Numbered from the stretch's first letter, positions 11,913 through 37,094 are shown. The stretch is 64,000 nucleotides of DNA from Patescibacteria group bacterium (GCA_041649135.1 JBAZNQ010000001.1:163037-227036); one strand, 5' to 3'. Numbers and translations: made by a program. The notes: generated by a model from the sequence alone, not told the origin.

Positions 11913-12150
11913 ACAGACAAAATAATTTACGCTAAATTCGAATTGCCAGCCTAGGGGGAATCACCCTGGGTTGAGTTTGTTCTTGGGGTGGATCGATGAG
12001 TTGTAGTCGTAAACCGACGAGAGACGACAAAAGTGCTGATGCCGGAAAGAGCAAGAAGCCGCCAACCATACGCCGTGTCAGCTGTGGCAAGGGTGGGAAG
12101 TACGCCGCAGGCAGAGGCAAGCGTCGTTAACTACTCGTTCTTCCTCAAGA

Positions 12151-12180
12151 GGGCAGCCCAATGGGCTGCCCTTCTTTTTC
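12151..12180 (+). terminator. rho-independent terminator
   Basis: GGGCAGCCC-aatg-GGCTGCCC followed by TTCTTTTTC. Confidence 0.65.
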
Positions 12181-12308
12181 GCTCTGGGAGACAATTCTAA
12201 TCGATCTACCCTGTTGCCAATTTGTCCACATCTGATAATCTCCTTGTCATAGGAGAAGCCCACCTGTACAATACCATTGTAGTTATAGCACTTAAAAAAG
12301 GAGTCCTC

Positions 12309-12506
12309 ATGGCTTTCAGCTACAAGAACAAAAAAGGTTCAACATATTTCTTGCACTCAAAAGAAGTCACCCTTAAGGGTGGTCGCAAACAACGGATTTA
12401 TTACTTCGGTAAAGAGGTCAAGGCCGGTGCCTGTGACGCCGTCCCAGCTGGTTACAAAGTTAAGGAAAGTGCCCGGACTGGTTTGCCAATTTTGTACAAA
12501 GGATAA
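12309..12506 (+). CDS. small hypothetical protein (66 aa)
   Basis: AAAGGAG RBS 6 nt upstream of ATG 12309; Lys/Gly-rich; imperfect hairpin terminator about 12575-12600. Confidence 0.3.
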   Translation: MAFSYKNKKGSTYFLHSKEVTLKGGRKQRIYYFGKEVKAGACDAVPAGYKVKESARTGLPILYKG

Positions 12507-12684
12507 TTACCCCTTTGTCATGCTGAACTTGCCTGCTCGGCCAGGGTTTCAGCGCCTAACCGTCTATTTTAAAAAACACTCGCTCGTAAGGGCGGGTGTT
12601 TTTATGTACTTGACCAACAAACAAAACAGTAGCTAGAATGAGCCATCTTAGATTTGCACCTGAACAAGATTGGAGGTTAACTCT

Positions 12685-13152
12685 ATGGGCTACAAAGATG
12701 GTGAACCGATCATCGGTTCCAACAATCGGAGTGAATCAACTCCGGCAGGCTGGCACTTTCCCAGCACCGAGTTCACACTCGCAGAACTTAATCCCAAATC
12801 CGTCAGATTCGTTGGCACACCTTCGCCTCATTGCCGTCCCACCCTGCTAGTTCAGCATTTTCACAGTAACGGCGATCAGGCAAGTTGGCGTGTAAGCTAT
12901 CGAGCAGAATGGGCACCCTGTTGTGAAATCTCGATTGTGGTTATTATGACCACCAACGAACTCCGTTGTGCCTTCACAGAGGCAAAGAGTAATTATGGTA
13001 GCGATTGGGTATTTCAGCGATCAGATGATTGTCTATCGATACCCACTCACGATCATGGTGTCAACATTCTGTTAACTGCCGAGATTTGCGAAGCAATCGA
13101 GAAATTCTTAGCGCAAAACGCTAAGTCACCCGCTGTGTCTCAAGGAGAGTAA
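12685..13152 (+). CDS. hypothetical protein (GC-rich)
   Basis: GGAGG RBS 8 nt upstream of ATG 12685; Cys/His-containing 155-aa protein. Confidence 0.35.
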   Translation: MGYKDGEPIIGSNNRSESTPAGWHFPSTEFTLAELNPKSVRFVGTPSPHCRPTLLVQHFHSNGDQASWRVSYRAEWAPCCEISIVVIMTTNELRCAFTEAKSNYGSDWVFQRSDDCLSIPTHDHGVNILLTAEICEAIEKFLAQNAKSPAVSQGE

Positions 13153-13155
13153 CAA

Positions 13156-13779
13156 ATGTCCATCGAAACCATCCTGAACCTAGTCGTCTTATGTGTCATC
13201 GTAGCGATTGGCGCTATTGCAACCATCGCCATCATCGCCCGTATACGACGGCATGGTCAGCAAACGTCCTATAACTCCATGGCAGGCGGTATTGCCACAT
13301 GGCTAGCATCCGATTCCCATTTGCTTGTCCATATGGCAGAGTTTTCGCGAGCCACGTTAACTGACGAGCTGCTCCAGAGCCTTCGTCAGCACGAACCATG
13401 GATCATCAACGCAGTACAGGCTGGCACCACCTATCTCGCCGGTGGCCAATCGTTTTATCTGATTTGTCTCTACGACCAGAACCAGTCCGACATCTGCAAA
13501 ATCGAAGATGGTGATACGCACATTGCATTAAAAGAATGCTTGTGCCGGCTGCTATTCGCCTTTTTCCCTGCTAAATCCGCTGGCCAGAACGAAGACGCTT
13601 GGCTCGATTGGGCACGCACACATTTCGAGCTGTTCTTGATACCTCTTAACGAGGATCTGTCGGTTCGAGACAGCTGCTTCAACTTGAAGCACGCTCGTAA
13701 CTTGCCTGGTTCACTGGAGATCTGGATTGCCGAGGACATGCCGCTGAACAAACCGCTGCACACGCCTAACCCCGAGTAG
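13156..13779 (+). CDS. hypothetical membrane-anchored protein (GC-rich)
   Basis: N-terminal TM helix (LNLVVLCVIVAIGAIATIAIIA); tightly follows the previous ORF. Confidence 0.4.
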   Translation: MSIETILNLVVLCVIVAIGAIATIAIIARIRRHGQQTSYNSMAGGIATWLASDSHLLVHMAEFSRATLTDELLQSLRQHEPWIINAVQAGTTYLAGGQSFYLICLYDQNQSDICKIEDGDTHIALKECLCRLLFAFFPAKSAGQNEDAWLDWARTHFELFLIPLNEDLSVRDSCFNLKHARNLPGSLEIWIAEDMPLNKPLHTPNPE

Positions 13780-13796
13780 GTCTGACCATCTTTCTA

Positions 13797-13823
13797 AAGC
13801 CGCTCCTAACCAGAGCGGCTTTT
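13797..13823 (+). terminator. rho-independent terminator
   Basis: AAGCCGCTC-ctaacca-GAGCGGCTT followed by TT. Confidence 0.6.
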
Positions 13824-14063
13824 CATATGGATTTATAAATACCTAGGGCAAGCCCAATAGTTTTGTCTTGGTAGCCCTAGTGGGACAGAATTGGAACCAA
13901 CTAATGGGGGAGATTAGGGCTTTAATGGATCTCTCAAAAGAGATCAGTTATGCCAGCTAGGAGCGACTACCACATGGGATTAGAACCGGCGACATCCGCT
14001 ATTGTGACAGGTTTGGAGTGGACCTAGAATAATACTATTGATAGTCGTGTATAAAATAAGGGC

Positions 14064-14091
14064 TTGACAAATAATGTACATATGATATATC
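14064..14091 (+). promoter_or_regulatory. sigma70-like promoter for the GHKL operon
   Basis: TTGACA (14064-14069), 16-nt spacer containing TG, TATATC (14086-14091); AT-rich; 35 nt upstream of ORF 14126. Confidence 0.4.
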
Positions 14092-14125
14092 CTGATCAAG
14101 GATATATTAATAACAGATTTAAGGT

Positions 14126-14344
14126 ATGGAGCCGAGTAAGCGAGAAAGGTTTAAAAAACTAGCTGTTTATCGGACAAATGAAGTTCTTAAACGGTTAAAG
14201 GTTCTTGGTAACTGCTCAAACCGCAGTGCTTATGAATATACCGAGGACGAAATAAACAAAATTTTTTCAGAGATCGAACGGAAGGTGAGAGAGACAAAAT
14301 CTAAATTTCACTTCCCCAAAAGTCATGGTGGTTTTAAATTGTGA
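14126..14344 (+). CDS. small basic hypothetical protein, first gene of GHKL operon
   Basis: 72-aa Lys/Arg-rich ORF; 9-nt gap to the next gene. Confidence 0.35.
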   Translation: MEPSKRERFKKLAVYRTNEVLKRLKVLGNCSNRSAYEYTEDEINKIFSEIERKVRETKSKFHFPKSHGGFKL

Positions 14345-14353
14345 GGATTAAAT

Positions 14354-16027
14354 ATGAATCAAATACTTTCGTCTATTCCAATCGTCATTAAAGATCAACA
14401 TACTCTTTTGAATCGCATAGCAGAGGGGTACCAGTCAATTGAGAAAGTGTTGATGGAGTACATCGACAACTCGCTCGATAGTGCTGAAATCATTTTTGAT
14501 GAAGATACTAAACGGTATGGCCGTGATATATCCATAACGGTTGCTATTGATCGCAAGAACAACACTGTCAGCATAAGAGACAACTGTGAGGGCATGGACA
14601 AGATTACAGTTGGTGGTTTGGCTAATAAGGTGAATGAGTCCGGCAAACCTGCACAAGCTCGTGCTTGGGTGACGGGACGGTTTGGATTGGGTATTCATGC
14701 TTTTCGACTAGTGGCGCAAGCATTGGAGGTTACATCGCAATGTAAAGGCGCAGAGCCAACAGCTATCGTTATCGATAAAGACAGGCGAGAAGCAGAACTT
14801 TTTAAGCCGACCGCAGTAGGGCTAACACCGAGCGGAACACTGGTGCAGTTGTGTGGTGTGGAAAAAACTAGACTCAAACATTTAAACCCAGTTGAGTTGG
14901 CGAAAGAAATTGAAATATATTTTGAAGGCTTTTTGTGGCGAAACTTGAAAATTATTGTTGTAGACGGAGACACCTCTTACGCGTGCGAACCCTATGATTA
15001 TGAAAAATTAAAGGGGATCGAAATCAATGAGGTTATTACCACTTGGAATGCTGGCAAAACTCGTATTATTAAGCCAACCGAGAGAGGGATTATAGTTCAT
15101 CTAAAGATTTGTACCGAAGAAGGTAACAATAGAGCCCCTTACTTTGCTTGCAAGGGTAGGAGAATTAGTTATATTCCACAGCTTGATTCATTTATTGCTA
15201 AAACCGAACATCGCAGGAAAGTTTGGGGGCATCACCTATTGACTGGCTATATTGAAGTCCAAGACAATCTTGAGCCAGTTATTACCCGTGATGACTTTGC
15301 GGGAGGGACGGGAAGACAGCAGAACCGAACAGGTATCTATGAGGAGGTTGTTAAGCTGGAAGACAAAATTCATGATGCCATTGAGGCAGTGAACAACAGT
15401 AAGAGCGATGAGAGTTTTCGCAACCTTGCGTCCCGCTTAACAGACATTCTTTCCGATCTAGCGAAAGAGGAGGAGCTTAATTTAAGGTATCAACAGAACG
15501 GTGACAAAAATAAAAAAGGGGAGAAGGAACCCATTACGCCAGATCCGAATGGTTTAGATTACAAGGTTGATAAAAAAATAATTTACGATGGCCCCGGTCC
15601 CATCCATCCCAACCCACATAAGGAAATTATTAATGCCATCAGTGATCCAGATGGCTCCGTAGAGGGAACTAAAATTGAAAAAGAAAAGCAGGGTATAAGA
15701 ATTGAGTTCAGTCAGTTACCTTCCCCTTTGAGAACCCATTATGGTGATAGTGTAATTACCATATTCGTAAAACATAAAGATTTTCAAGATCGGAAGGGTG
15801 ATACACAGCTTGCGGAGCTAGGATCAATGAAGATTACAGCTAGATTGGCAAACTATTTGGCGGCTATAATTTCTAGTGAGTTCAAAGAAGTCTTTTATCA
15901 ACAGAAACACATAGAACCACCACGTGCCGATATTCTGAACCAGCAAATTGACTTTATCTTTAAGATGGAAGATCGCATGAAAGACTTCATCGATAAACCG
16001 TTACAATCTATAGGGATAATCAAATAA
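14354..16027 (+). CDS. GHKL (Bergerat-fold) ATPase, Hsp90/MORC/MutL-like N-terminal domain plus about 350-aa uncharacterised C-terminal region
   Basis: N-box E35-YIDNSLD42, G1 box D76-NCEGM, G2 box G108-RFGLGIHAF in canonical order and spacing; AGGA RBS. Confidence 0.6.
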   Translation: MNQILSSIPIVIKDQHTLLNRIAEGYQSIEKVLMEYIDNSLDSAEIIFDEDTKRYGRDISITVAIDRKNNTVSIRDNCEGMDKITVGGLANKVNESGKPAQARAWVTGRFGLGIHAFRLVAQALEVTSQCKGAEPTAIVIDKDRREAELFKPTAVGLTPSGTLVQLCGVEKTRLKHLNPVELAKEIEIYFEGFLWRNLKIIVVDGDTSYACEPYDYEKLKGIEINEVITTWNAGKTRIIKPTERGIIVHLKICTEEGNNRAPYFACKGRRISYIPQLDSFIAKTEHRRKVWGHHLLTGYIEVQDNLEPVITRDDFAGGTGRQQNRTGIYEEVVKLEDKIHDAIEAVNNSKSDESFRNLASRLTDILSDLAKEEELNLRYQQNGDKNKKGEKEPITPDPNGLDYKVDKKIIYDGPGPIHPNPHKEIINAISDPDGSVEGTKIEKEKQGIRIEFSQLPSPLRTHYGDSVITIFVKHKDFQDRKGDTQLAELGSMKITARLANYLAAIISSEFKEVFYQQKHIEPPRADILNQQIDFIFKMEDRMKDFIDKPLQSIGIIK

Positions 16028-16029
16028 TT

Positions 16030-16947
16030 ATGTCAGTACCAAACGACAATTTACTTGTGGCATTGATTGATGAGTTAGCTCCTGTTAATAATAAATTCCG
16101 AGCAACTCGTGATGCTGTGTCAAAAATCGAGCTAATGTGGGATTTTGGTGGGATCTTAAGCAAATATCTTAAGAAGAACAATCTAAAGCTCCATGAGTTG
16201 CTCTACAAAATTTACGATCCTTATAGCATGGTGAAGATGAGTTACATCACCCGCGACCTCGGAAGCTATGCATATCGCATTCACCAACACTTTAAAAGTC
16301 GATCAGAAATCAGAGATGTTTTAGATGGGCTGATTAGTTACGGAGTTTTTCGTGAAGCTGTCCCATTGCTTTTCAACCCAAAGTACAAATTATCTGATAC
16401 TCGCAAACAAGAAATATTAAAGATGCTGGTTTCCTCCTCTCTCTCTGTTAGCATAGTGGCCTATCGGTTGAAAACACTTAAAAAACAAATAAACCCAATA
16501 TCGAACCCAAGAAACCAAAGGGCAATGGAGTATCAGAGCGAACATGACTACTTGTTGCGCTTGCACAGGGATCTCAACGTCTTTTACGGTCAAAATCCAA
16601 CATACCCGTCAGCTAAACCAACAGAGGAAAAGTTTGGTAGTAAGGCAAGTAGAGAGGCCTTCGTTGCGGTACTGATGGCCTTATCCAGCGAAGCATTTTT
16701 GGGAGGTATAGACAATATCAATCCATCCGCTCTTGATAAAGAGCGGGCGAATCTATTTGAAATTGTGAACAGCAACTCTCAAAAGAGAGCAAGGTTTCGT
16801 AAATGGAGTGTCGGAACCAACGAATTGCTTAAAATCGCAGAGGCCTTACATTCTCTCAACAGTGAATCCGACTATTTGAGTTACGAATCTAAATTAAGAG
16901 GCGGGGCAATTGGGCCGTATAATAATGGACAAAGGCAACTCGGGTAG
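16030..16947 (+). CDS. hypothetical protein (alpha-helical, no motif recognised)
   Basis: 305-aa ORF 2 nt after the GHKL gene; overlaps the next gene by 38 nt. Confidence 0.45.
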   Translation: MSVPNDNLLVALIDELAPVNNKFRATRDAVSKIELMWDFGGILSKYLKKNNLKLHELLYKIYDPYSMVKMSYITRDLGSYAYRIHQHFKSRSEIRDVLDGLISYGVFREAVPLLFNPKYKLSDTRKQEILKMLVSSSLSVSIVAYRLKTLKKQINPISNPRNQRAMEYQSEHDYLLRLHRDLNVFYGQNPTYPSAKPTEEKFGSKASREAFVAVLMALSSEAFLGGIDNINPSALDKERANLFEIVNSNSQKRARFRKWSVGTNELLKIAEALHSLNSESDYLSYESKLRGGAIGPYNNGQRQLG

Positions 16948-17317
16948 AAAATTATTCGATGGCAAAGATAAATACTCGGTCCTCCAGAAATTAGAGGAAG
17001 CGTTTATACTAGGTGCTACCGATGGAGAAGCTTGTCTGTATGCAGATATTTCAACCTCTGCCCTATATGCTTACCAGAAGCGAAATCCCGCATTTCTGGA
17101 GCGTAAAGAGCTATTAAAACTGAAGCCTGTTCTACGAGCTCGACGAACAGTCGTAAAGGCACTCGAGACCAATCCAGATTTAGCACTCAAGTATTTAGAA
17201 AGAAAAATGCGGATAGAATTCAGCACGGGTCAACGGGTTCAGATCGGTTTGGACAAACATGTCTTAAGTGATGAGGATAAGGACCATCTGGATATCATTC
17301 TACAGTCCAACTCCTAG
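16910..17317 (+). CDS. HTH protein resembling phage terminase small subunit (gpP-like HTH) N-terminus
   Basis: pattern G-R-K..DKYS..LQKLEEAFILGATDGEACLYADIS.SALYAYQKRNPAF matches terminase-small/HTH_23-like domains. Confidence 0.4.
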   Translation: MGRIIMDKGNSGRKLFDGKDKYSVLQKLEEAFILGATDGEACLYADISTSALYAYQKRNPAFLERKELLKLKPVLRARRTVVKALETNPDLALKYLERKMRIEFSTGQRVQIGLDKHVLSDEDKDHLDIILQSNS

Positions 17318-19146
17318 GACAGCCCATCTTCTTCAGTAGACGAGTCTGGTTGAGTCTCATCTGGATTTTTTAAATTCAAACCAAAGTCCGTATGAAGGTC
17401 ATAACCCACCCGAAACATGTATCGTTCGACGGCCTTTCTGTCTCCATCGGCGTGAAGGTATATTTCGAGCCCTTCCGAATAAACGTCGCTGGCAGAGGCC
17501 ATACCGACGAGTTCTTTGTGTATCCAGTCATCCAAGCGATCATTCAAGAACCCAGCTGTGGTAAATTTATCAGAATGCCCCGCAGCTGTAGCACCCAACT
17601 TAAACAGCATCTTTAATGCTTCCGCAGCCATATCTTTAAAAGATGATGCCACAATGCTCTTTATCGCATTACGAAGGTTTGTGGCAGCAAGATCAGCACC
17701 GCTACGATTACCTACCTTGATGGCTGCAACACCAAACGAATAAAAAATGTAATAAAGCTGGAATACTACATCGGGGAAGTTTGTTATATGCTTGCTTTCT
17801 TCTGGCGTCAGCATCATCAAACGCCTGAAAACAACATCTACTGCATCAAAGTAGATTAGGGGGTACCAGTCTGGATGATTCTGATCATAAATAGCACTAA
17901 TACTAAATAGGGCGGCAAAAAGATTTTGGGTTTGATTTTTGTATTCCCAGTCGTCGGGCATTAGAGGCTCCTCGTGGTAAGACTGTCCAATAAAGAGTTT
18001 CTCGCCGAGCCAACCAATACACACAAACATTTCATCTAACCCATTATCCTTTTCGTTGTGTTGATCCATAATCCGCTCTGCTGTCTTTTCAAAAAGGTTT
18101 ATTACCCTTTTAACGACTACCGGGTGTGAAGTTACCCGAGTTTCGGCGATACGTTTCCAAAAATTAGTTAATACCTTTAGTGAGTCCGTGTTTCCAGAAT
18201 CAACCAACATCTCCGCAATGGACTGGGTGGTGTCCAATATAGATAAAATAACCGAGCCAAGGCCTTGATGTTGTATAACCTCTGCATGAGCATTGAACAT
18301 ATCAATTAAGTGTTCTAGGTAATGAGACAGCAGCCCTCGGTTAGCGTCCCAATTAGGCCATCCCTCGATCTTTTTGCGCACTTTTATAAACCGATCACTA
18401 ATGGCAGTAACTGATTCGAGAAAACGATTATAGGTGACTAGGTCAAGACGCACCAAAGCATCAATAGCAATCTGATTGGCCGACGCAAACGGATCAGTGG
18501 CTTTTTGGGAAATTTTGGTCAAATATGAATACCTTTTCATCTGGCGATCAAAGACCATTGATTGTTCAAGCTCCTCTTCTTGCGCTTTTAACTGTGTTGT
18601 TTCAGTATCCAATACTTCTTCCTGAACCTTGCCCGATTGGTCAAATTGTGCGAGTACAACGCTCATACGCCACATGCGGTTATCCTTGGGGCTAACAATC
18701 CCATATTTTTTATGTAAGAAGCTTTCGATTGCATTCGTAGTTGCCCTCTTGAGACTATCCAAAAGAAACTGACTTGGTTGCAGATATCGAAAATTTCGCA
18801 AAACTGCTCCAAGAAACAATGCAACCGTCCCTCCCAACCCTATCCAAATTAGCACTAGCATCCAACCAGCGCTTACGAGTTCCTGTGTGTGAAAATAGTA
18901 CTGGGGAACAAAATCATATTGCCCCAATGTTAACGAGAGACCGGCAAAAGCAGTCCACCCTAGCAAAACCACACTCAACAGCATAAATATTATGAGAACG
19001 GTGTCTTTCAGTATCAATTGCACTTCTCGATCAGAAAATCTACTGTAAATAATTTGGATGAAAACAAAAAATACAGCGACACAAATCCCGAGTACCGCTA
19101 CTTCGATGCCGAGCAAGCTATTGTAGTAATTTTGTAATCCGGTCAT
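17314..19146 (-). CDS. large membrane protein: four N-terminal TM helices plus roughly 480-aa cytoplasmic domain of unknown function
   Basis: 610-aa ORF convergent with the GHKL operon (4-nt overlap); hydrophobic helices in the first about 115 aa; no catalytic motif recognised. Confidence 0.5.
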   Translation of the reverse strand: MTGLQNYYNSLLGIEVAVLGICVAVFFVFIQIIYSRFSDREVQLILKDTVLIIFMLLSVVLLGWTAFAGLSLTLGQYDFVPQYYFHTQELVSAGWMLVLIWIGLGGTVALFLGAVLRNFRYLQPSQFLLDSLKRATTNAIESFLHKKYGIVSPKDNRMWRMSVVLAQFDQSGKVQEEVLDTETTQLKAQEEELEQSMVFDRQMKRYSYLTKISQKATDPFASANQIAIDALVRLDLVTYNRFLESVTAISDRFIKVRKKIEGWPNWDANRGLLSHYLEHLIDMFNAHAEVIQHQGLGSVILSILDTTQSIAEMLVDSGNTDSLKVLTNFWKRIAETRVTSHPVVVKRVINLFEKTAERIMDQHNEKDNGLDEMFVCIGWLGEKLFIGQSYHEEPLMPDDWEYKNQTQNLFAALFSISAIYDQNHPDWYPLIYFDAVDVVFRRLMMLTPEESKHITNFPDVVFQLYYIFYSFGVAAIKVGNRSGADLAATNLRNAIKSIVASSFKDMAAEALKMLFKLGATAAGHSDKFTTAGFLNDRLDDWIHKELVGMASASDVYSEGLEIYLHADGDRKAVERYMFRVGYDLHTDFGLNLKNPDETQPDSSTEEDGLS

Positions 19147-19536
19147 TGGTTATGGAGTTATTTACGCAAAGAGCGGGTTGCCCCCGCTACATCTATTTTA
19201 CCACCAGTTGACCTAGTCGACCCCTAATAATGGCCGGTATCAATAGTGCCCTCTTGGCAAGGAATACCTCTGTGCTAATATGGAGGCGTTCACCCACAAC
19301 TTAATAAAACCGAAGAACTTTTCTATATGAAGAGATTCGTCATGGATAAAGGCGGGCAGATGCTCGGCGTCCATGACGATCTACTCTTCGGAGCAAGAGG
19401 TTGTGGGTGAACCGCTAGAGGTCTGCCCACTTTTGATATGAATTTATATCTACCCCCTCGCCCCAATCTTCCTTATAACAAAAACCGCAACAAGGCCACT
19501 TTAAAGTTCCCCTTTACACGTGAGGAGCTGACAAAG

Positions 19537-19773
19537 ATGGCCAAAAAGGAGAGTTTCTTTGAAGAGAAAAGACTAGGAGAGTTTATGCGGTTTGGAGAAA
19601 TGTTTCTTTTGGGTAATCTCTGGGCGATGATGTGGGTTGGTGGGTTCGGCGTCAACGGCATTTCGATAGGCGTAATCGTGGGAGGTTGGTTAATTGGAGG
19701 AATGGCAGCCATATCTTGGGGTCGCAAAATAGATCGACTTAAAAAGGGTGACTGGAAATCTTTATGGCCCTAG
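19537..19773 (+). CDS. small membrane protein (two TM helices)
   Basis: GAGGAG RBS 9 nt upstream of ATG 19537; Gly/Trp-rich helices. Confidence 0.3.
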   Translation: MAKKESFFEEKRLGEFMRFGEMFLLGNLWAMMWVGGFGVNGISIGVIVGGWLIGGMAAISWGRKIDRLKKGDWKSLWP

Positions 19774-19903
19774 AATAGTTATCCATATTGACGCCTATTG
19801 AAATATTGATAGACTGAATGTACAAGTAGCTGGCCTTTGGGCCATTCGACATATCGCTGACGGCACAGTTAGTTTTTAGAAAAATGACGGCAATTATTTT
19901 GTA

Positions 19904-20152
19904 ATGCCGTCATTTATGCGTACCCAAACCCGTGGTTTGCTCACAAACCAGTCTAACCTGTCTGATGAAGAAGCCCTAAATCGTTGGAATGCAACGGGGA
20001 GACTGACCATTGAACAATGTCGGAAGATCGACCCCAGATTAATGAAATTGTCAGACAAAGATATATTAGTTATTTTGCATGACCTGTACGGGTTAGGGCA
20101 GCTAGCCTTTGATCAATGGTCCGAACAAAGACAGTTCCAAAAATCCCATTAG
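19904..20152 (+). CDS. small hypothetical protein upstream of the recombinase (possible directionality/regulatory factor)
   Basis: 82-aa ORF; its start codon lies inside an 11-bp perfect palindrome (19882-19915). Confidence 0.3.
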   Translation: MPSFMRTQTRGLLTNQSNLSDEEALNRWNATGRLTIEQCRKIDPRLMKLSDKDILVILHDLYGLGQLAFDQWSEQRQFQKSH

Positions 20153-20192
20153 GGTTATTGAAGGACTTCTAAAAGTGGAATACGTTTAGACT

Positions 20193-21722
20193 ATGCGTAC
20201 TTCAGACACAACAGAGCAGGAGAACAAAAGGGGCATTATTTACTGCCGCGTATCATCAAAAGACCAACTAGAGGGAACCAGCCTAGAAACACAAGAGCGA
20301 TTCTCTACCGAATACGCAATTAATCATGGTATCAAGGTTATTAAGGTTTTTGTCGAACGAGGGGAAAGCGCAAAAACAGCCAATAGAACGGAGTTTAATA
20401 AAGCATTAGCTTTTTGTACTGATAAGAAAAATAAGATTCAGTATTTCATTGTTTATAAACTAGATCGATTTGCTCGCAATCAAGATGATCATGTCACTGT
20501 AAAAGCGATACTACGCCGTGCGGAGGTAGAATTGAGATCCGTCACGGAACCGATTGACCAAACTCCAATTGGCCGTGCCATGGAGGGAGTGCTATCTGTA
20601 TTCGCTGAATTTGATAACAATGTTAGAACCGAGCGTACTAAACAAGGTATGCTAGAGCGCGTCCAAGAGGGAATGTGGGTATGGCCGACTCCATTGGGTT
20701 ATTGCAGACCATTCAAGGGCTCTAATATTACACCAGAACCAGAAGTATCTCCTTTAATTCGATTGGGGTTTGAAGAGTATTCAAAGGGAATCTACACCTA
20801 CAAAAGCTTGGCCAAATTTTTGTCTGACCGAGGGTTGAGAACCAGAGGCGGATATCTGCCCTCTCATCAATTCATAGATAAAATGATAAAAAATCCAATT
20901 TACAAAGGATTTATAGAAGCATGGGGTGGACACAAGGGATCGTTCGAAGCAATCGTGTCAGAGGAGCTATTTGATTCGTGCCAAGTAAGCCGTAAGGGTT
21001 TATCACACAAAGCCCCTAGGATGTCCAGAAACCCCCTATTCCCTTTGCGAGGAGTTATATGTAAGGAGTGTTCCAGTCCGATCACTGGTAGCAAATCCAC
21101 GGGCAATAGTGGCAAGAAATATCCCTATTATCATCACCCACATCAGCATTGCTCTCTGGCACAATCAGTCCCAAAAGAGAACTTTGAACAACTATTCGTC
21201 GAGTTTTTGAACAACATTACCCCAGACCACCAATATGAGAAGTTATTCAAAGCAGTGGTGTTGGACATTTGGCAAAACAATTACAAAAGGTTTGACGAGG
21301 ACAATGCCAGAGTTCGAAGAGAAATCGCAAAGTTGGAACAAGAACGTCAAAAGGTTTTTGATCTTCACAGAACAGGGATATATACAGACAGCGAGTTTGA
21401 TGAGCAGAGAAACTTCATTAATCGAATGATAGATGAAAAACGTCTTCTGGTTCACGAAAAGGCAGTAGAAGAATTTGATATGGAAGAGGCTCTAAACTAT
21501 TGCTTCAACTTTATCAAACAAACCTCTAAAACATGGCTTGAAGCTGATTTCCCTCACAAATTACAGTTTCAGAAATTGATATTTAAGGGGAATATCGAAT
21601 TTGATGGAAAAAAGTTTGGAACCACCAAATTGTCAGCTCTGTATGCTCTAAATCGAGAATATTCTGGTGAAAAATCCCATTTGGTAGCGCCACGGGGAAT
21701 CGAACCCCGGTTACAAGAATGA
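20193..21722 (+). CDS. large serine recombinase (resolvase/invertase catalytic domain + recombinase domain + zinc ribbon)
   Basis: catalytic-serine context IIYCRVSSKDQ; resolvase core (YKLDRFARN); Cys/His cluster (CKECSSP...HHPHQHC); C-terminal 41 nt overlap the tRNA-Glu gene antisense. Confidence 0.8.
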   Translation: MRTSDTTEQENKRGIIYCRVSSKDQLEGTSLETQERFSTEYAINHGIKVIKVFVERGESAKTANRTEFNKALAFCTDKKNKIQYFIVYKLDRFARNQDDHVTVKAILRRAEVELRSVTEPIDQTPIGRAMEGVLSVFAEFDNNVRTERTKQGMLERVQEGMWVWPTPLGYCRPFKGSNITPEPEVSPLIRLGFEEYSKGIYTYKSLAKFLSDRGLRTRGGYLPSHQFIDKMIKNPIYKGFIEAWGGHKGSFEAIVSEELFDSCQVSRKGLSHKAPRMSRNPLFPLRGVICKECSSPITGSKSTGNSGKKYPYYHHPHQHCSLAQSVPKENFEQLFVEFLNNITPDHQYEKLFKAVVLDIWQNNYKRFDEDNARVRREIAKLEQERQKVFDLHRTGIYTDSEFDEQRNFINRMIDEKRLLVHEKAVEEFDMEEALNYCFNFIKQTSKTWLEADFPHKLQFQKLIFKGNIEFDGKKFGTTKLSALYALNREYSGEKSHLVAPRGIEPRLQE

Positions 21723-21756
21723 GAATCTTGCGTCCTAACCGTTAGACGATGGCGCC
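21682..21756 (-). tRNA. tRNA-Glu (anticodon CUC)
   Basis: reverse complement GGCGCCATCGTCTAACGGTTAGGACGCAAGATTCTCATTCTTGTAACCGGGGTTCGATTCCCCGTGGCGCTACCA folds as a cloverleaf (D arm GTCT/GGAC, anticodon stem CAAGA/TCTTG with loop TTCTCAT, T arm CGGGG-TTCGATT-CCCCG, encoded CCA); close to the E. coli tRNA-Glu pattern. Confidence 0.8.
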
Positions 21757-22083: not shown

Positions 22084-22120
22084 AGTTCGTTGCCCCAATA
22101 TTCCGCCTCTTACTAAATCC

Positions 22121-22173
22121 TAGATCCCAGATACTAGATACTAGATGCTAATCCCTAGATACTAAATGCTAAT
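22121..22173 (+). repeat. heptamer-periodic tract (TAGATRC-like) including a tandem duplication of the nfo start region
   Basis: tagatactagatgctaat (22135-22152) and tagatactaaATGctaat (22156-22173), 17 of 18 identical; the second copy contains the nfo start codon. Confidence 0.7.
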
Positions 22174-34967: not shown

Positions 34968-35003
34968 AGGGTCAGAGTAATGTTACTCTGACCCTTTCTC
35001 TTT
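34968..35003 (+). terminator. rho-independent terminator (13-bp perfect stem)
   Basis: AGGGTCAGAGTAA-tg-TTACTCTGACCCT followed by TTCTCTTT. Confidence 0.6.
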
Positions 35004-35073
35004 ATAAGATTATCTTGACTGAAAGCAGAAAATCTGTAAAAATCAACCAGTACCTTAACCTTACCGTGGAGGG

Positions 35074-35466
35074 ATGATTGCCATGATCGTAGACAAGAAA
35101 ATGATAGAGCAGGTGATACAAGCCGTAAAACGACTCACTCACCACCCAGAAGAATCCCGACGCCTGCTAGTATGTTCTCACCCTAAGGCCGAAATCTTGG
35201 TCGAGCGAAGGAGAACGGAGGAAGATGACACTCTTCTCATCCGCTTTTGGGTCGGTGACGATGACAAACCATCCGATCGCTACCAGATACCCTTCCATCT
35301 GCTATTCAAAGAGCCAGTAATAACGTTGGAAAAAGTGACAATCTTTGTGCAGCAATTCGAGATACCGCACAATCGCTCGCTGTCTCCGGCGGAAAGAGTT
35401 GTCCACGGAGGCAGTTATACTGGCCGCAATGGCAATCATGCCGGAGGTGGTTTCGGAGATCGATAG
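35074..35466 (+). CDS. hypothetical protein
   Basis: 130-aa ORF; Gly-rich C-terminus. Confidence 0.3.
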   Translation: MIAMIVDKKMIEQVIQAVKRLTHHPEESRRLLVCSHPKAEILVERRRTEEDDTLLIRFWVGDDDKPSDRYQIPFHLLFKEPVITLEKVTIFVQQFEIPHNRSLSPAERVVHGGSYTGRNGNHAGGGFGDR

Positions 35467-35689
35467 GGGACTACGGCGCAAACGGAAAGATAGAGGTTCT
35501 GTCAAAAACGGAGCCTCTTTTTATTAATTCTGTTTATTCCCTTAATAGTTTTTATCAATCTCAAATAAAGAACAAAACAATTTGAAATAAAATCCTACAC
35601 CTCCTCTGGAGATAGACAACGTCGCACATTGTATCTTGTACGACATTACATCAAGGATAAGGAGAACACCCCTTCCTTCGTCATTCCGA

Positions 35690-36317
35690 GTGAAACGAAG
35701 AATCCAGCAAAGCGTTTATCAATTTCTTTTTATCTTGACCTTGAATCCGACTTCGAATTTTCCAATTCGTTTTTGCAGATGGACTGACTACTATCGCCCA
35801 AGGCTCAATTGCCACCTCCCCGACCTCTGATACTCGTAAAGCTAAATACAGGTCTTCTGGGGCCAATGAAAAGGCCTACTAGCCAACCTTTGTCATTGCG
35901 AGAAGTTTTACGACGAAGCAATCTACTCCCGTCATCCTGAATTAATTTCAGGATCTTTAAAATCGGAACATAAATCGGCTTCAACCAGAAGAAATCTAAA
36001 CTCATCAACCAGGAGGCTAGCCCACCAGTCAACCAGACTCCCCCACCGACCGCTGAAACGACGCTCCTTGACTTTTTAGATTCGTCGTCCTGAGCGTAGT
36101 CGAAGGATCTATCATCAAATCTGGAAATCAGCTTTTGGAGCCAGTTTTTAGATGCGACCGAATCCCCGTCAATGCATGCAACGATTTCTCCCCGCACTTC
36201 CTTAAAGCCTCTAATTCTGGCATAAACAATTCCGCTCGGCCCATTCTCCTCAACAACTCTCCAATTTGTCCCGTCCTTCGCGTGCCCCGTTGTCATTCCT
36301 GCGAAGGCAGGAATCCA
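35690..36317. repeat. cluster of 5 GTCAT-headed palindromic mini-elements (about 25-32 nt each)
   Basis: 35690-35715 GTCATTCCGAGTGAAACGAAGAATCC; 35892-35923 GTCATTGCGAGAAGTTTTACGACGAAGCAATC; 35931-35955 GTCATCCTGAATTAATTTCAGGATC; 36084-36109 GTCGTCCTGAGCGTAGTCGAAGGATC; 36293-36317 GTCATTCCTGCGAAGGCAGGAATCC. Confidence 0.75.
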
Positions 36318-36503
36318 TTTTTGCTCCTTATCATCATCCTGACTTGACCAGAATCTTTTCGCGATCTCCACCGTCTTATCACTACAATTATGCGCCACCA
36401 AAATAACCTCATCCGGCATCAAAGTCTGCTGTTGAATTGATTTCAAACACCGCGCAATATTACCCGCTTCATTGTGGGCAACAATTAATACCGATATCTT
36501 CAT
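35805..36503 (-). CDS. glycosyltransferase family 2, N-terminal domain intact, interrupted in frame by palindromic mini-elements (possible pseudogene)
   Basis: MKISVLIVAHNEAGNIARCLKS...DEVILVAHNCSDKT...ACIDGDS typical of GT2; segments IPAFAGMTTGHAK, RSFDYAQDDE and LIQDDG are encoded by the GTCAT palindromes; C-terminal third is low-complexity. Confidence 0.5.
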   Translation of the reverse strand: MKISVLIVAHNEAGNIARCLKSIQQQTLMPDEVILVAHNCSDKTVEIAKRFWSSQDDDKEQKWIPAFAGMTTGHAKDGTNWRVVEENGPSGIVYARIRGFKEVRGEIVACIDGDSVASKNWLQKLISRFDDRSFDYAQDDESKKSRSVVSAVGGGVWLTGGLASWLMSLDFFWLKPIYVPILKILKLIQDDGSRLLRRKTSRNDKGWLVGLFIGPRRPVFSFTSIRGRGGGN

Positions 36504-36566
36504 GTGATGTCCCTATAATTGGAGATTGGACATTGGCGAATTGGACATTAAAACCGCCTCGCGGTT

Positions 36567-37094
36567 TTAATGTCCCTCCGGTTGGATTACGGCATTTTCA
36601 ACCGCCGCCCAATGTGAATCTTCATTACTTTCTGGAACTAGAATCGTTATCTGATCTCCCGGCGTTAGTTTAAAGTAAGTCACCGAGGCCAACAGAACAG
36701 CATAGGATTTGCCGCCAGCGACTACTTTATATTCATCATCTTCATAAACCAGCGTGCCCAAAAGTTTTTTACGGTCAACTGGTCCAATTTGTTTAAAGAT
36801 AAACGAGCCATCGTCTTGGATCGTCAGCTTTAACACATCCCCTACCACCAATTTAGATTTGCTGGCGTAGTTAGCTGGTACGGGATACTTCTTGCCGTCG
36901 TGGTCCAACATATACTGACCGTCGAACACACCTTCAACCACGTTGCCCTCGGACTTCAAATTAACAGCTCTACCACCCACATCATCAAATTGGACTCCTA
37001 TCAGTTCTGTTAAAACCTGTTTGGCTGATGCCAAATTAGCGGTCGCTGTTTCCAACAACTGCTTTACCATCTCGATTTTTGCTTTGTCTGCCAT
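36567..37094 (-). CDS. hypothetical protein, last gene of the VirB4-like ATPase operon
   Basis: 175-aa ORF. Confidence 0.4.
   Translation of the reverse strand: MADKAKIEMVKQLLETATANLASAKQVLTELIGVQFDDVGGRAVNLKSEGNVVEGVFDGQYMLDHDGKKYPVPANYASKSKLVVGDVLKLTIQDDGSFIFKQIGPVDRKKLLGTLVYEDDEYKVVAGGKSYAVLLASVTYFKLTPGDQITILVPESNEDSHWAAVENAVIQPEGH

Follow-up and report, generated by a model that had tools for sequence, protein, structure and literature searches.

A 7.8-kb serine-recombinase element in the tRNA-Glu gene of a Patescibacteria genome and its putative paraMORC-type ATPase cassette

The interval between murA and tRNA-Glu(CUC) was examined in a 64,000-nucleotide stretch of DNA from a Patescibacteria group bacterium (GCA_041649135.1 JBAZNQ010000001.1:163037-227036; hereafter the window, from whose first letter coordinates are counted). 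Positions ~13,870 to ~21,690 of the window, whose genome belongs to the candidate phyla radiation (CPR), are occupied by a 7.8-kb integrative element inserted in the 3' end of the tRNA-Glu(CUC) gene. The element carries (i) an operon encoding a GHKL-type ATPase together with two partners termed p72 and p305, (ii) a solo homologue of small terminase subunits (TerS) and membrane proteins, and (iii) a large serine recombinase preceded by a small protein termed p82. In the NCBI annotation every gene of the region is a "hypothetical protein" or an "ATP-binding protein". All open reading frames (ORFs) that a first-pass annotation, made from the sequence alone, had placed here were recovered at the positions it gave. 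The features of the element are as follows (lengths in amino acids, aa, and nucleotides, nt).

~13,870 to ~21,690: integrative element, 7.8 kb, in the 3' end of tRNA-Glu(CUC)
13866-13905, + strand: left end, site read as attL, TCTTGGTAGC/CCTAGTGGGACAGAATTGGAACCAACTAAT, a short stretch copied from the tRNA 3' end (TTGGTAGC), then an arm specific to the element
14064-14093, + strand: cassette promoter from a promoter scan, TTGACA, 16-18 nt spacer, extended -10 box TG-n-TATATC/TATCCT
14085-14107, unstranded: putative operator, perfect inverted repeat ATATATCCT-GATCA-AGGATATAT over the -10 box
14126-14344, + strand: p72, 72-aa conserved leader protein of GHKL operons
14354-16027, + strand: 557-aa GHKL plus S5/transducer ATPase (MORC/paraMORC-like) with a long helix and a C-terminal domain of no known family
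16030-16947, + strand: p305, all-helical, Arg/Lys-rich partner of the 557-type ATPase
16925-17317, + strand: solo TerS homologue, overlapping the end of p305; 130 aa with ATG 16925 as start codon, 135 aa with TTG 16910
17314-19146, - strand: 610-aa membrane protein with 3-4 N-terminal hydrophobic helices and a large soluble domain, convergent cargo
19438-19773, + strand: small membrane protein of 111 aa (78 aa if started at 19537; ORF list and hydropathy), no homologue in sister elements
19904-20152, + strand: p82, 82 aa
20193-21722, + strand: large serine recombinase, 509 aa
21682-21756, - strand: tRNA-Glu(CUC) (ARAGORN and Rfam, 62.7 bits), the 3' end of which (~21682-21690) holds attR and the probable crossover

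The right end of the element is formed by the recombinase gene, which ends at position 21722 inside the tRNA gene and overlaps its 3' half by 41 nt, the last 13 codons being the antisense of the tRNA, just as the first-pass annotation had described. The protein has the Pfam domains Resolvase (PF00239, residues 15-162, E 5e-32, including the sequence IIYCRVSSKDQ) and Recombinase (PF07508, E 2e-10, above its cut-off), matches the phrog_95 integrases (E 2e-83) and resembles CcrB and XisF in NCBIfam. The catalytic context YCRVSS that had been read from the sequence was thus borne out, and the zinc ribbon named along with it is probable only (PF13408, E 1.3e-3, 19.5 bits versus a cut-off of 25.3 bits).

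A scan of metagenomes with the recombinase sequence returned 40 related loci; identity was 43-67% apart from two partial matches, the weakest of the set. In 23 of 30 loci scanned for this feature the 3' end of the recombinase gene overlaps the antisense of a tRNA 3' end, the tRNA being Glu (UUC or CUC) in 20, Arg(UCU) in two and Ala(CGC) in one. Relatives ending in tRNA-Ala(CGC) or tRNA-Arg(UCU) instead of tRNA-Glu are those at L024, L033 and L059; the recombinase family has changed its tRNA target here while keeping the overlap of gene and tRNA. By tblastn, p82 has homologues at 21 recombinase loci, in every case 50-250 nt ahead of the gene for the recombinase. It is the sole protein family common to all elements, the remaining cargo being variable, and it had no match in Pfam, PHROG or phage records; p82 is a candidate directionality or regulatory factor. 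None of the other genes of the island occurred in the sister recombinase loci.

Both att sites could be defined, and a relative with an empty site was found. The 38 nt at 13868-13905 are 100% identical in locus L023, where the flanks have 68-80% identity only. From this stretch the motif CCWARTGGG-N-TTGGAAY is present in exactly one copy each, on the recombinase strand, in 14 independent metagenomic recombinase loci, lies 3.4-8.6 kb upstream of the tRNA in the ten loci with both ends present, and was absent from ~445 kb of unrelated loci. The motif is preceded by 5-7 nt (GGTAGC, GGCAGC or GTGAC) whose sequence covaries with the 3' strand of the acceptor stem in the resident tRNA, and TTGGTAGC is common to the left site and the tRNA-Glu 3' end. 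We therefore read 13866-13905 as attL, which would consist of a few bases of the displaced tRNA end plus the P' arm of the element, with the crossover probably falling within or next to TTGGTAGC, at ~13,870 and ~21,685. The attB and attP sites were reconstructed accordingly; attP, with the junction AAATCCCATTTGGTAGC/CCTAGTGGGACAG in the circular form, holds TCCCA-N14-TGGGA centred at the putative crossover. The P' arm is similar to the tRNA T-stem, a likeness to be expected if all half-sites are read by one and the same protein. A scan of viral contigs for the attL motif gave 22 matches, which is about the chance expectation, none of them with a recombinase nearby.

The left boundary was determined by comparison with two relatives, in which the following features of the flank could be placed.

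12309-12506, + strand: host core gene, 65 aa, outside the element (94% aa identity in L017, 85% in L023)
12640-13780, + strand: separate insertion with two genes of no known family (155/160 aa and 207 aa), ~49% GC, between the host gene and attL

In the related Saccharibacteria genome L017, whose murA is 65% identical, the gene order is murA, 65-aa gene, 86-aa ORF, tRNA-Glu(CUC), apurinic/apyrimidinic (AP) endonuclease gene and onward, such that its murA-to-tRNA interval measures 1.16 kb versus 9.77 kb in the window, with synteny being otherwise equal. This comparison provided the empty site which the first-pass annotation had proposed to look for, to which the conserved attL of the 14 recombinase loci can be added. 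The 65-aa gene is host DNA, because it is 94% identical in a genome without the island, and the view that everything between murA and the tRNA is non-housekeeping had to be given up. In L023 the same host gene is followed after ~50 nt by attL and then by a 3.4-kb element. The segment 12,510-13,867 (1.36 kb, ~49% GC versus ~43% around it) is missing from both L023 and L017 and is for this reason regarded as a separate insertion. The degenerate copy of the tRNA T-arm that had been placed at 11954 as the left end (GGGGGAATCACCCTGGGTT) fails to match the tRNA within 3 mismatches, the pattern matching the tRNA only; instead of an att remnant it makes up the stem-loop of a terminator-like hairpin (11947-11973) immediately downstream of murA. 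The mobile island at tRNA-Glu with its recombinase was consequently retained, at a size of 7.8 kb and not 9.8 kb. When the island was searched for repeats, neither convincing long att repeats nor long direct repeats flanking the region were detected, and in an Rfam scan of 11-23 kb the tRNA was the sole match.

The element belongs to a CPR-wide family of 3.4-8.6-kb elements that have in common the serine recombinase gene ending in a tRNA, p82 and the conserved left-end site. Their cargo is a mixture of plasmid-like and defence genes, examples of which were identified in the sister elements at the following coordinates of their own loci.

L043, 996-5462: DndB-HEPN protein with a HEAT-repeat partner
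L036, 2996-4117: Mrr-type endonuclease
L041, 6877-8976: HerA/FtsK-like ATPase
L032, 8954-9817: rolling-circle initiator (RepSA/REP_ORF2-G2P) immediately preceding p82 and the recombinase; a trypsin-like protease is also part of this element's cargo
L037, 2894-3706: rolling-circle initiator (RepSA/REP_ORF2-G2P) immediately preceding p82 and the recombinase

The central gene of the cargo operon encodes the 557-aa ATPase, which matched the Pfam family HATPase_c_3 (E 8.6e-10). The N (EYIDNSLD), G1 (DNCEGM) and G2 (GRFGLGIHAF) boxes noticed in the first-pass annotation were confirmed, residues E35, D38, N39, D42, D76, N77, G80, G108 and G113 being invariant among 51 sequences of the family. The protein has a Bergerat fold with an S5-fold transducer directly after the GHKL domain; its AlphaFold2 model (predicted local distance difference test score, pLDDT, 85) comprises the GHKL domain, the S5-like transducer, a 45-residue helix and a C-terminal part that is beta-rich and helical. 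The closest solved folds are SMCHD1 and MORC2/3. When the sequence profile of the family was searched against the PDB only residues 12-192 aligned, and the Hsp90/HtpG N-domain alone was matched. Pfam gives the generic HATPase_c_3 only, and no Pfam family covers the C-terminal region. Orthology with HtpG or MutL was rejected (NCBIfam HtpG 25 bits versus a cut-off of 371, residues 46-139 only), in agreement with the first-pass view that this is not a housekeeping protein, for which no full-length match was found. A Topo VI/VIII-like enzyme was likewise rejected, there being no Toprim or catalytic-tyrosine partner. The protein has 75 relatives of ~555 aa; in the 51 family members no nuclease or other effector domain was detected by Pfam or PADLOC, and in a tblastn search of the PLSDB plasmids neither the 557-aa protein nor p305 found any match. 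The p305 model is all helical (pLDDT 89.7) and the protein has many invariant Arg, Lys and Asn residues; p305 and its relatives have no Pfam family.

The conserved unit is p72 plus the 557-aa GHKL ATPase plus p305, and this unit is portable, occurring also without any recombinase. The triad recurs in five independent neighbourhoods (L003, L004, L005, L008 and the viral contig L062), where genes for 70-81 aa upstream and for 286-297 aa downstream of the ATPase are homologous to p72 and p305, respectively; the more distant L011 and L014 have the pair of GHKL ATPase and p305 without p72. None of these seven loci has the recombinase, the terS-like gene or the 610-aa membrane protein. The first-pass annotation had suggested that conservation of the operon be examined independently of the recombinase: this conservation exists, for three genes and not four, and the proposed combination of a four-gene operon with a transmembrane partner is not upheld as one system. 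Members of the cassette family were present in 1-2 of 2.9 million viral contigs.

Restriction-modification (R-M) or defence genes lie at most 5 kb away in L004, L014, L067, L072, L075, L099 and L100 and in neither L003 nor L011, with no single fixed partner. The neighbours at L004 are a GajA/GajB-like pair, a superfamily 1 helicase, Prim-Pol, Hypoth_Ymh and a PycTM protein, and those at L005 are DUF3800 and Fic. At L014 (8001-14800) the pair adjoins, back to back, an MvaI/BcnI-type endonuclease, a cytosine methylase (Dcm) and another HATPase_c_3 protein, of 741 aa, two different MORC-like ATPases thus being present in one defence island.

The operon promoter called in the first-pass annotation was recovered, and its TTGACA and TATAT(CC) boxes are retained ahead of the p72 gene at 10 loci, which belong to different phyla. 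The putative operator over the -10 box has 9-nt arms, which was reached in 1 of 300 shuffles. Inverted repeats of the half-site AGG(A/G)TAT lie over or abut the -10 box in the window, L063, L072 and L075 (arm length reached in at most 6 of 300 shuffles) and are imperfect in L003.

A search with p72 returned 1573 clusters at E<=0.01, with an identity of 74% or more for each of the best 120. The copies of the window and L003 have 55 identical residues, and for 26 of these the codons differ; p72 is a true protein because synonymous sites vary, and an RNA element was ruled out by the same variation. The viral contig L062 has a p72 that is 81% identical to the window copy next to an ATPase of only 30% identity. 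A 191-aa member (P0377) in the same 90% cluster as the 72-aa p72 is either a fusion or has a mis-called start. Neither p72 nor its relatives have a Pfam family, with weak hints of the DUF4145/DUF5677 type only. The hosts comprise CPR bacteria, Hydrogenedentes, Alphaproteobacteria, Deinococcota and Bacillota, in addition to a temperate phage, and in every bacterial or temperate-phage context examined p72 precedes a GHKL-type ATPase, usually near R-M or defence genes. The p72-GHKL-p305 triad thus represents a single branch within a far larger group of GHKL operons led by p72, which is enriched beside R-M and defence genes and other forms of which were found at four loci.

L063 (Hydrogenedentes): p72, then a 785-aa protein
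L072: p72, then a 785-aa protein; RadC-methylase and AlwI endonuclease nearby
L067: p72, then a 505-aa protein and two more genes; HpaII R-M, Vsr and Fic nearby
L075: p72, then a DNA methyltransferase (inside the operon) and a 757-aa protein

The large proteins of these four loci do not align with the 557-aa family, yet have the N, G1 and G2 boxes in order. HATPase_c_3 matched the 505-aa protein (E 7e-5), one copy of the 785-aa protein at E 0.12 only, and neither the other copy nor the 757-aa protein; hhalign of the 505-, 785- and 757-aa proteins gave E 0.001 to 0.18 on the motif region.

More distant p72 homologues (30-40% identical, hidden Markov model (HMM) E 1e-19 to 1e-25) lead similar operons. 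They are located on plasmids, namely pDSHI06 of Dinoroseobacter shibae, a plasmid of Deinococcus actinosclerus and p3_GEB3 of Priestia megaterium (operon of WP_275037707), where the neighbours are Dcm/Vsr, MutH/Sau3AI plus Dcm or a GajA/B-like pair, and next to the integrase of the temperate Clostridium innocuum phage NatCom_9291; tblastn matches were also obtained on Agrobacterium and Rhizobium plasmids. The large proteins of the plasmid and NatCom_9291 operons have 621-637 aa and clear GHKL motifs. In Priestia, NatCom_9291 and (truncated) Deinococcus the large protein is followed by a ~285-aa protein and a DUF6339 protein, and in Dinoroseobacter by a gene encoding 461 aa. Among the 2.9 million viral contigs p72 was found in one. 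Solo p72-like genes are present in the lytic Synechococcus phages S-H34 (L102, 4001-4270), S-N03, MA01/MA10/ME01/MC09 and S-CRES1-3 (S-CRES3: gp49; L103, 3992-4243); such genes were noted in S-H34, in S-CRES3 and in nine further cyanophage records. They encode 83-89 aa (32-38% identical, HMM 41-49 bits) amid arrays of tiny genes with no GHKL gene nearby, which is the pattern expected of a captured regulator or decoy. In the searchable literature we found no published description of p72, of p305 or of the recombinase family, and searches on CPR serine-recombinase elements, on DUF6339 and on HATPase_c_3 in connection with defence gave no earlier account.

The remaining cargo includes the TerS homologue, which matched phrog_4102 terS (E 1e-13) and shares 44-52% identity with proteins encoded by three Streptococcus satellites (Javan588/594/560) and by the phages IPP16, IPP23 and IPP26. 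In IPP16 the TerS-like gene lies directly upstream of a gene whose product is 62% identical to the large terminase subunit (TerL) of TP901-1 (tblastn annotation). Because this counterpart directly precedes a TerL-like gene, the 130/135-aa protein of the window is a genuine TerS homologue, as the first-pass annotation had proposed for a terS-like protein. A phmmer search of the IPP16 TerL against PDB sequences gave no match. The 610-aa protein, whose transmembrane helices were reproduced by hydropathy, belongs to a family of ~166 representative clusters of ~600 aa with no Pfam match. Neither it nor the TerS homologue was found in the viral contigs.

Outside the element some further observations were made. 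The 207-aa protein of the 1.36-kb insertion has an N-terminal hydrophobic helix, and the spot between the 65-aa gene and tRNA-Glu looks like a variable hot spot, since L017 has an unrelated 86-aa ORF there. A strong terminator-like hairpin at 12149-12173 (11 pairs, 8 of them GC, then a T-run) ends a 170-nt stretch without a convincing ORF (11975-12175) between the murA terminator and the 65-aa gene; the stretch could be a small RNA gene, and Rfam gave nothing for it at E <= 1. A tandem array of three 14-nt units (TACTAGAT-like) is located at 22111-22166, shortly before the AP endonuclease gene. From ~35000-37000 onward gene orientation turns from + to - and GC skew changes from ~0 to ~-0.25 over the remaining 28 kb, which could be a replication-related strand switch.

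We consider the triad most likely to be an uncatalogued defence cassette of the paraMORC type carried by a small integrative element, and hold this with moderate confidence because no effector domain is recognisable and because the argument relies on gene neighbourhood. The cassette would act against phages or mobile DNA: p72 may be a dimeric repressor or inhibitor that holds the operon or the ATPase off, the GHKL protein would dimerise on ATP and clamp DNA or act as a sensor, and p305 would supply the DNA-binding or effector step. With its solo TerS homologue the element may in addition be packaged by a helper phage.

A number of results weigh against this interpretation. The defence role is inferred from gene neighbourhood only, and L003 (ZnuA, RecG) and L011 (glycolysis genes, SecG) have ordinary housekeeping neighbours. 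The triad has no recognisable nuclease, TIR, HEPN or pore-forming effector. PADLOC gave only scattered single-member matches and no system for the 51 GHKL relatives, and no PADLOC model fits the operon (PADLOC-DB 2.0), in line with the first-pass opinion that it is not a described system; among all island proteins the single match was that of the 207-aa protein with Cas8e (E 0.025, chance level). The fold search with p305 was uninformative, with weak ParB/KorB-like helix-turn-helix (HTH) matches only, and the repressor role of p72 is putative, being read from the palindrome, with no Xre-type HTH match. The GHKL identity of the p72 partners, of moderate strength overall, is firm for some and weak for the 785- and 757-aa forms, which have the motifs and weak hhalign or Pfam scores in its favour. 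Finally, no excised or empty form was found in the same population.

A wider reading can be put forward tentatively. According to it the p72-led operons are a large, undescribed, cross-phylum anti-phage family, in which the near-invariant p72 of ~70 aa with its own promoter and operator would restrain a fast-evolving MORC-like GHKL ATPase and variable effectors; the solo p72 of cyanophages would be off-switch decoys, and the carrier would represent the first described family of tRNA-targeting serine-recombinase elements, possibly satellites, in CPR.

It is possible, though we lean against it, that the element is a phage satellite comparable to phage-inducible chromosomal islands (PICIs): a helper would induce it, the recombinase would excise it, and the solo TerS would redirect the large terminase of the helper to package the 7.8-kb DNA, with the GHKL cassette as immunity cargo or interference module, such that this reading overlaps and is compatible with that of a defence cassette. 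In its favour, the element is small, has its integrase at one end and combines it with a TerS homologue that has no TerL or capsid genes beside it, and this TerS resembles Streptococcus satellite proteins at 44-52% identity and a gene located just upstream of TerL in phages of the IPP16/TP901-1 type. However, no domain of a replication module of its own (primase or rep), of a master repressor or of capsid remodelling was found in any element protein, this TerS is present in 0 of 13 sister elements examined, some of which carry rolling-circle Rep or FtsK/HerA-like genes instead, no close TerS relative occurs in the 2.9 million viral contigs, and no CPR helper phage is known here. PICIs share the solo TerS with this copy of the element, whereas PICI-type repressor, primase and capsid-size genes are lacking in it and its host is a CPR bacterium.

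The defence interpretation also has to be set against a service of the cassette to the mobile DNA itself, in compaction, topology, partition or replication control, which we regard as improbable. That DNA is what other GHKL plus S5 ATPases (MutL, Topo VI-B, MORC, SMCHD1) act upon, that p305 has weak matches to ParB/KorB-like HTH proteins, and that cassettes reside on an integrative element, plasmids and a prophage would suit such a role, but the same cassette stands at chromosomal sites without mobility genes (L003, L005, L008, L011), it is missing from sister elements that have a recombinase of this family, the neighbours are mostly R-M and defence genes and not replication genes, and a Toprim or catalytic-tyrosine partner is absent. 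That 11954-21756 is a single 9.8-kb island whose GHKL operon, terS-like gene and 610-aa protein make up one system is very unlikely: the genes are adjacent and the first four co-oriented with overlapping or abutting ends, but the left 1.9 kb are host DNA and a separate insertion, the supposed att remnant is a terminator, and the membrane protein and TerS occur in no other GHKL locus. Almost no weight remains for ancestral core genes without any mobile element, for which the absence of long direct repeats flanking the region would speak, as the region is wholly missing from the related genome L017 and the architecture of attL, p82 and recombinase is kept in 14 loci with different cargo.

Among described systems, the nearest to the cassette are the paraMORC and prokaryotic MORC GHKL ATPases of R-M operons (Iyer, Abhiman and Aravind, 2008; PMC2292703). 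They share with the 557-aa protein the N-terminal GHKL domain, the S5/transducer and a family-specific C-terminal extension, and with its loci the patchy, laterally mobile distribution and, at some of them, the proximity of Dcm, Vsr, restriction endonucleases and UvrD-type helicases. Our cassette differs in having no fixed superfamily II helicase or nuclease partner, its fixed partners being p72 and, in this subtype, p305, neither of which is mentioned in that work (PMC2292703). VcSduA, the GHKL-Shedu (paraMORC3) single-protein defence system of Vibrio cholerae, has anti-phage activity by experiment (PMC12137116); like the 557-aa protein it combines a GHKL ATPase with a middle clamp-like domain, and this class of ATPase can therefore run defence. 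In contrast to VcSduA, which ends in a DUF4263 PD-(D/E)xK nuclease and acts as a single protein, the 51 family members had neither such a nuclease nor a Shedu HMM match, and the 557-aa protein is encoded in an operon with two others. The C proteins of type II R-M systems and antitoxin-like leaders are, like p72, products of a small first gene with a palindromic operator over its own promoter, and one p72 operon (L075) holds a DNA methyltransferase; p72 differs from them in having neither an Xre-type HTH match nor a Pfam family and in being far more conserved than its partners (81% versus 30% in L062).

The recombinase shares with those of phiC31, Bxb1, TP901-1 and SCCmec (CcrAB) the layout of Resolvase, recombinase and zinc-ribbon domains in ~500 aa, and its att sites, as is usual for large serine integrases, have only few bases in common and no long direct repeats. 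It differs from them in that the target is a tRNA 3' end, with the integrase ORF running into the antisense strand of the tRNA, and in the conserved 82-aa gene directly upstream. Targets in tRNA genes are typical for tyrosine integrases and unusual for serine integrases. The order rep-xis-int of pSAM2-type actinomycete elements is mirrored by Rep-p82-recombinase in the sisters L032 and L037; pSAM2 has a tyrosine integrase, whereas the element described here has a serine recombinase and in this copy no Rep.

CPR bacteria have tiny genomes, and to our knowledge few defences or mobile elements have been recorded in them. A recurrent CPR serine-recombinase family with predictable att sites would offer a rare handle on the mobilome of these organisms and a possible genetic tool. 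In many phyla the p72-GHKL architecture couples a bacterial ATPase of MORC/SMCHD1 type to a small, conserved putative regulator, and since versions of it are present in the cultivable Priestia megaterium and Dinoroseobacter shibae its function is directly testable. The solo p72 genes of lytic cyanophages point to a testable arms-race interaction.

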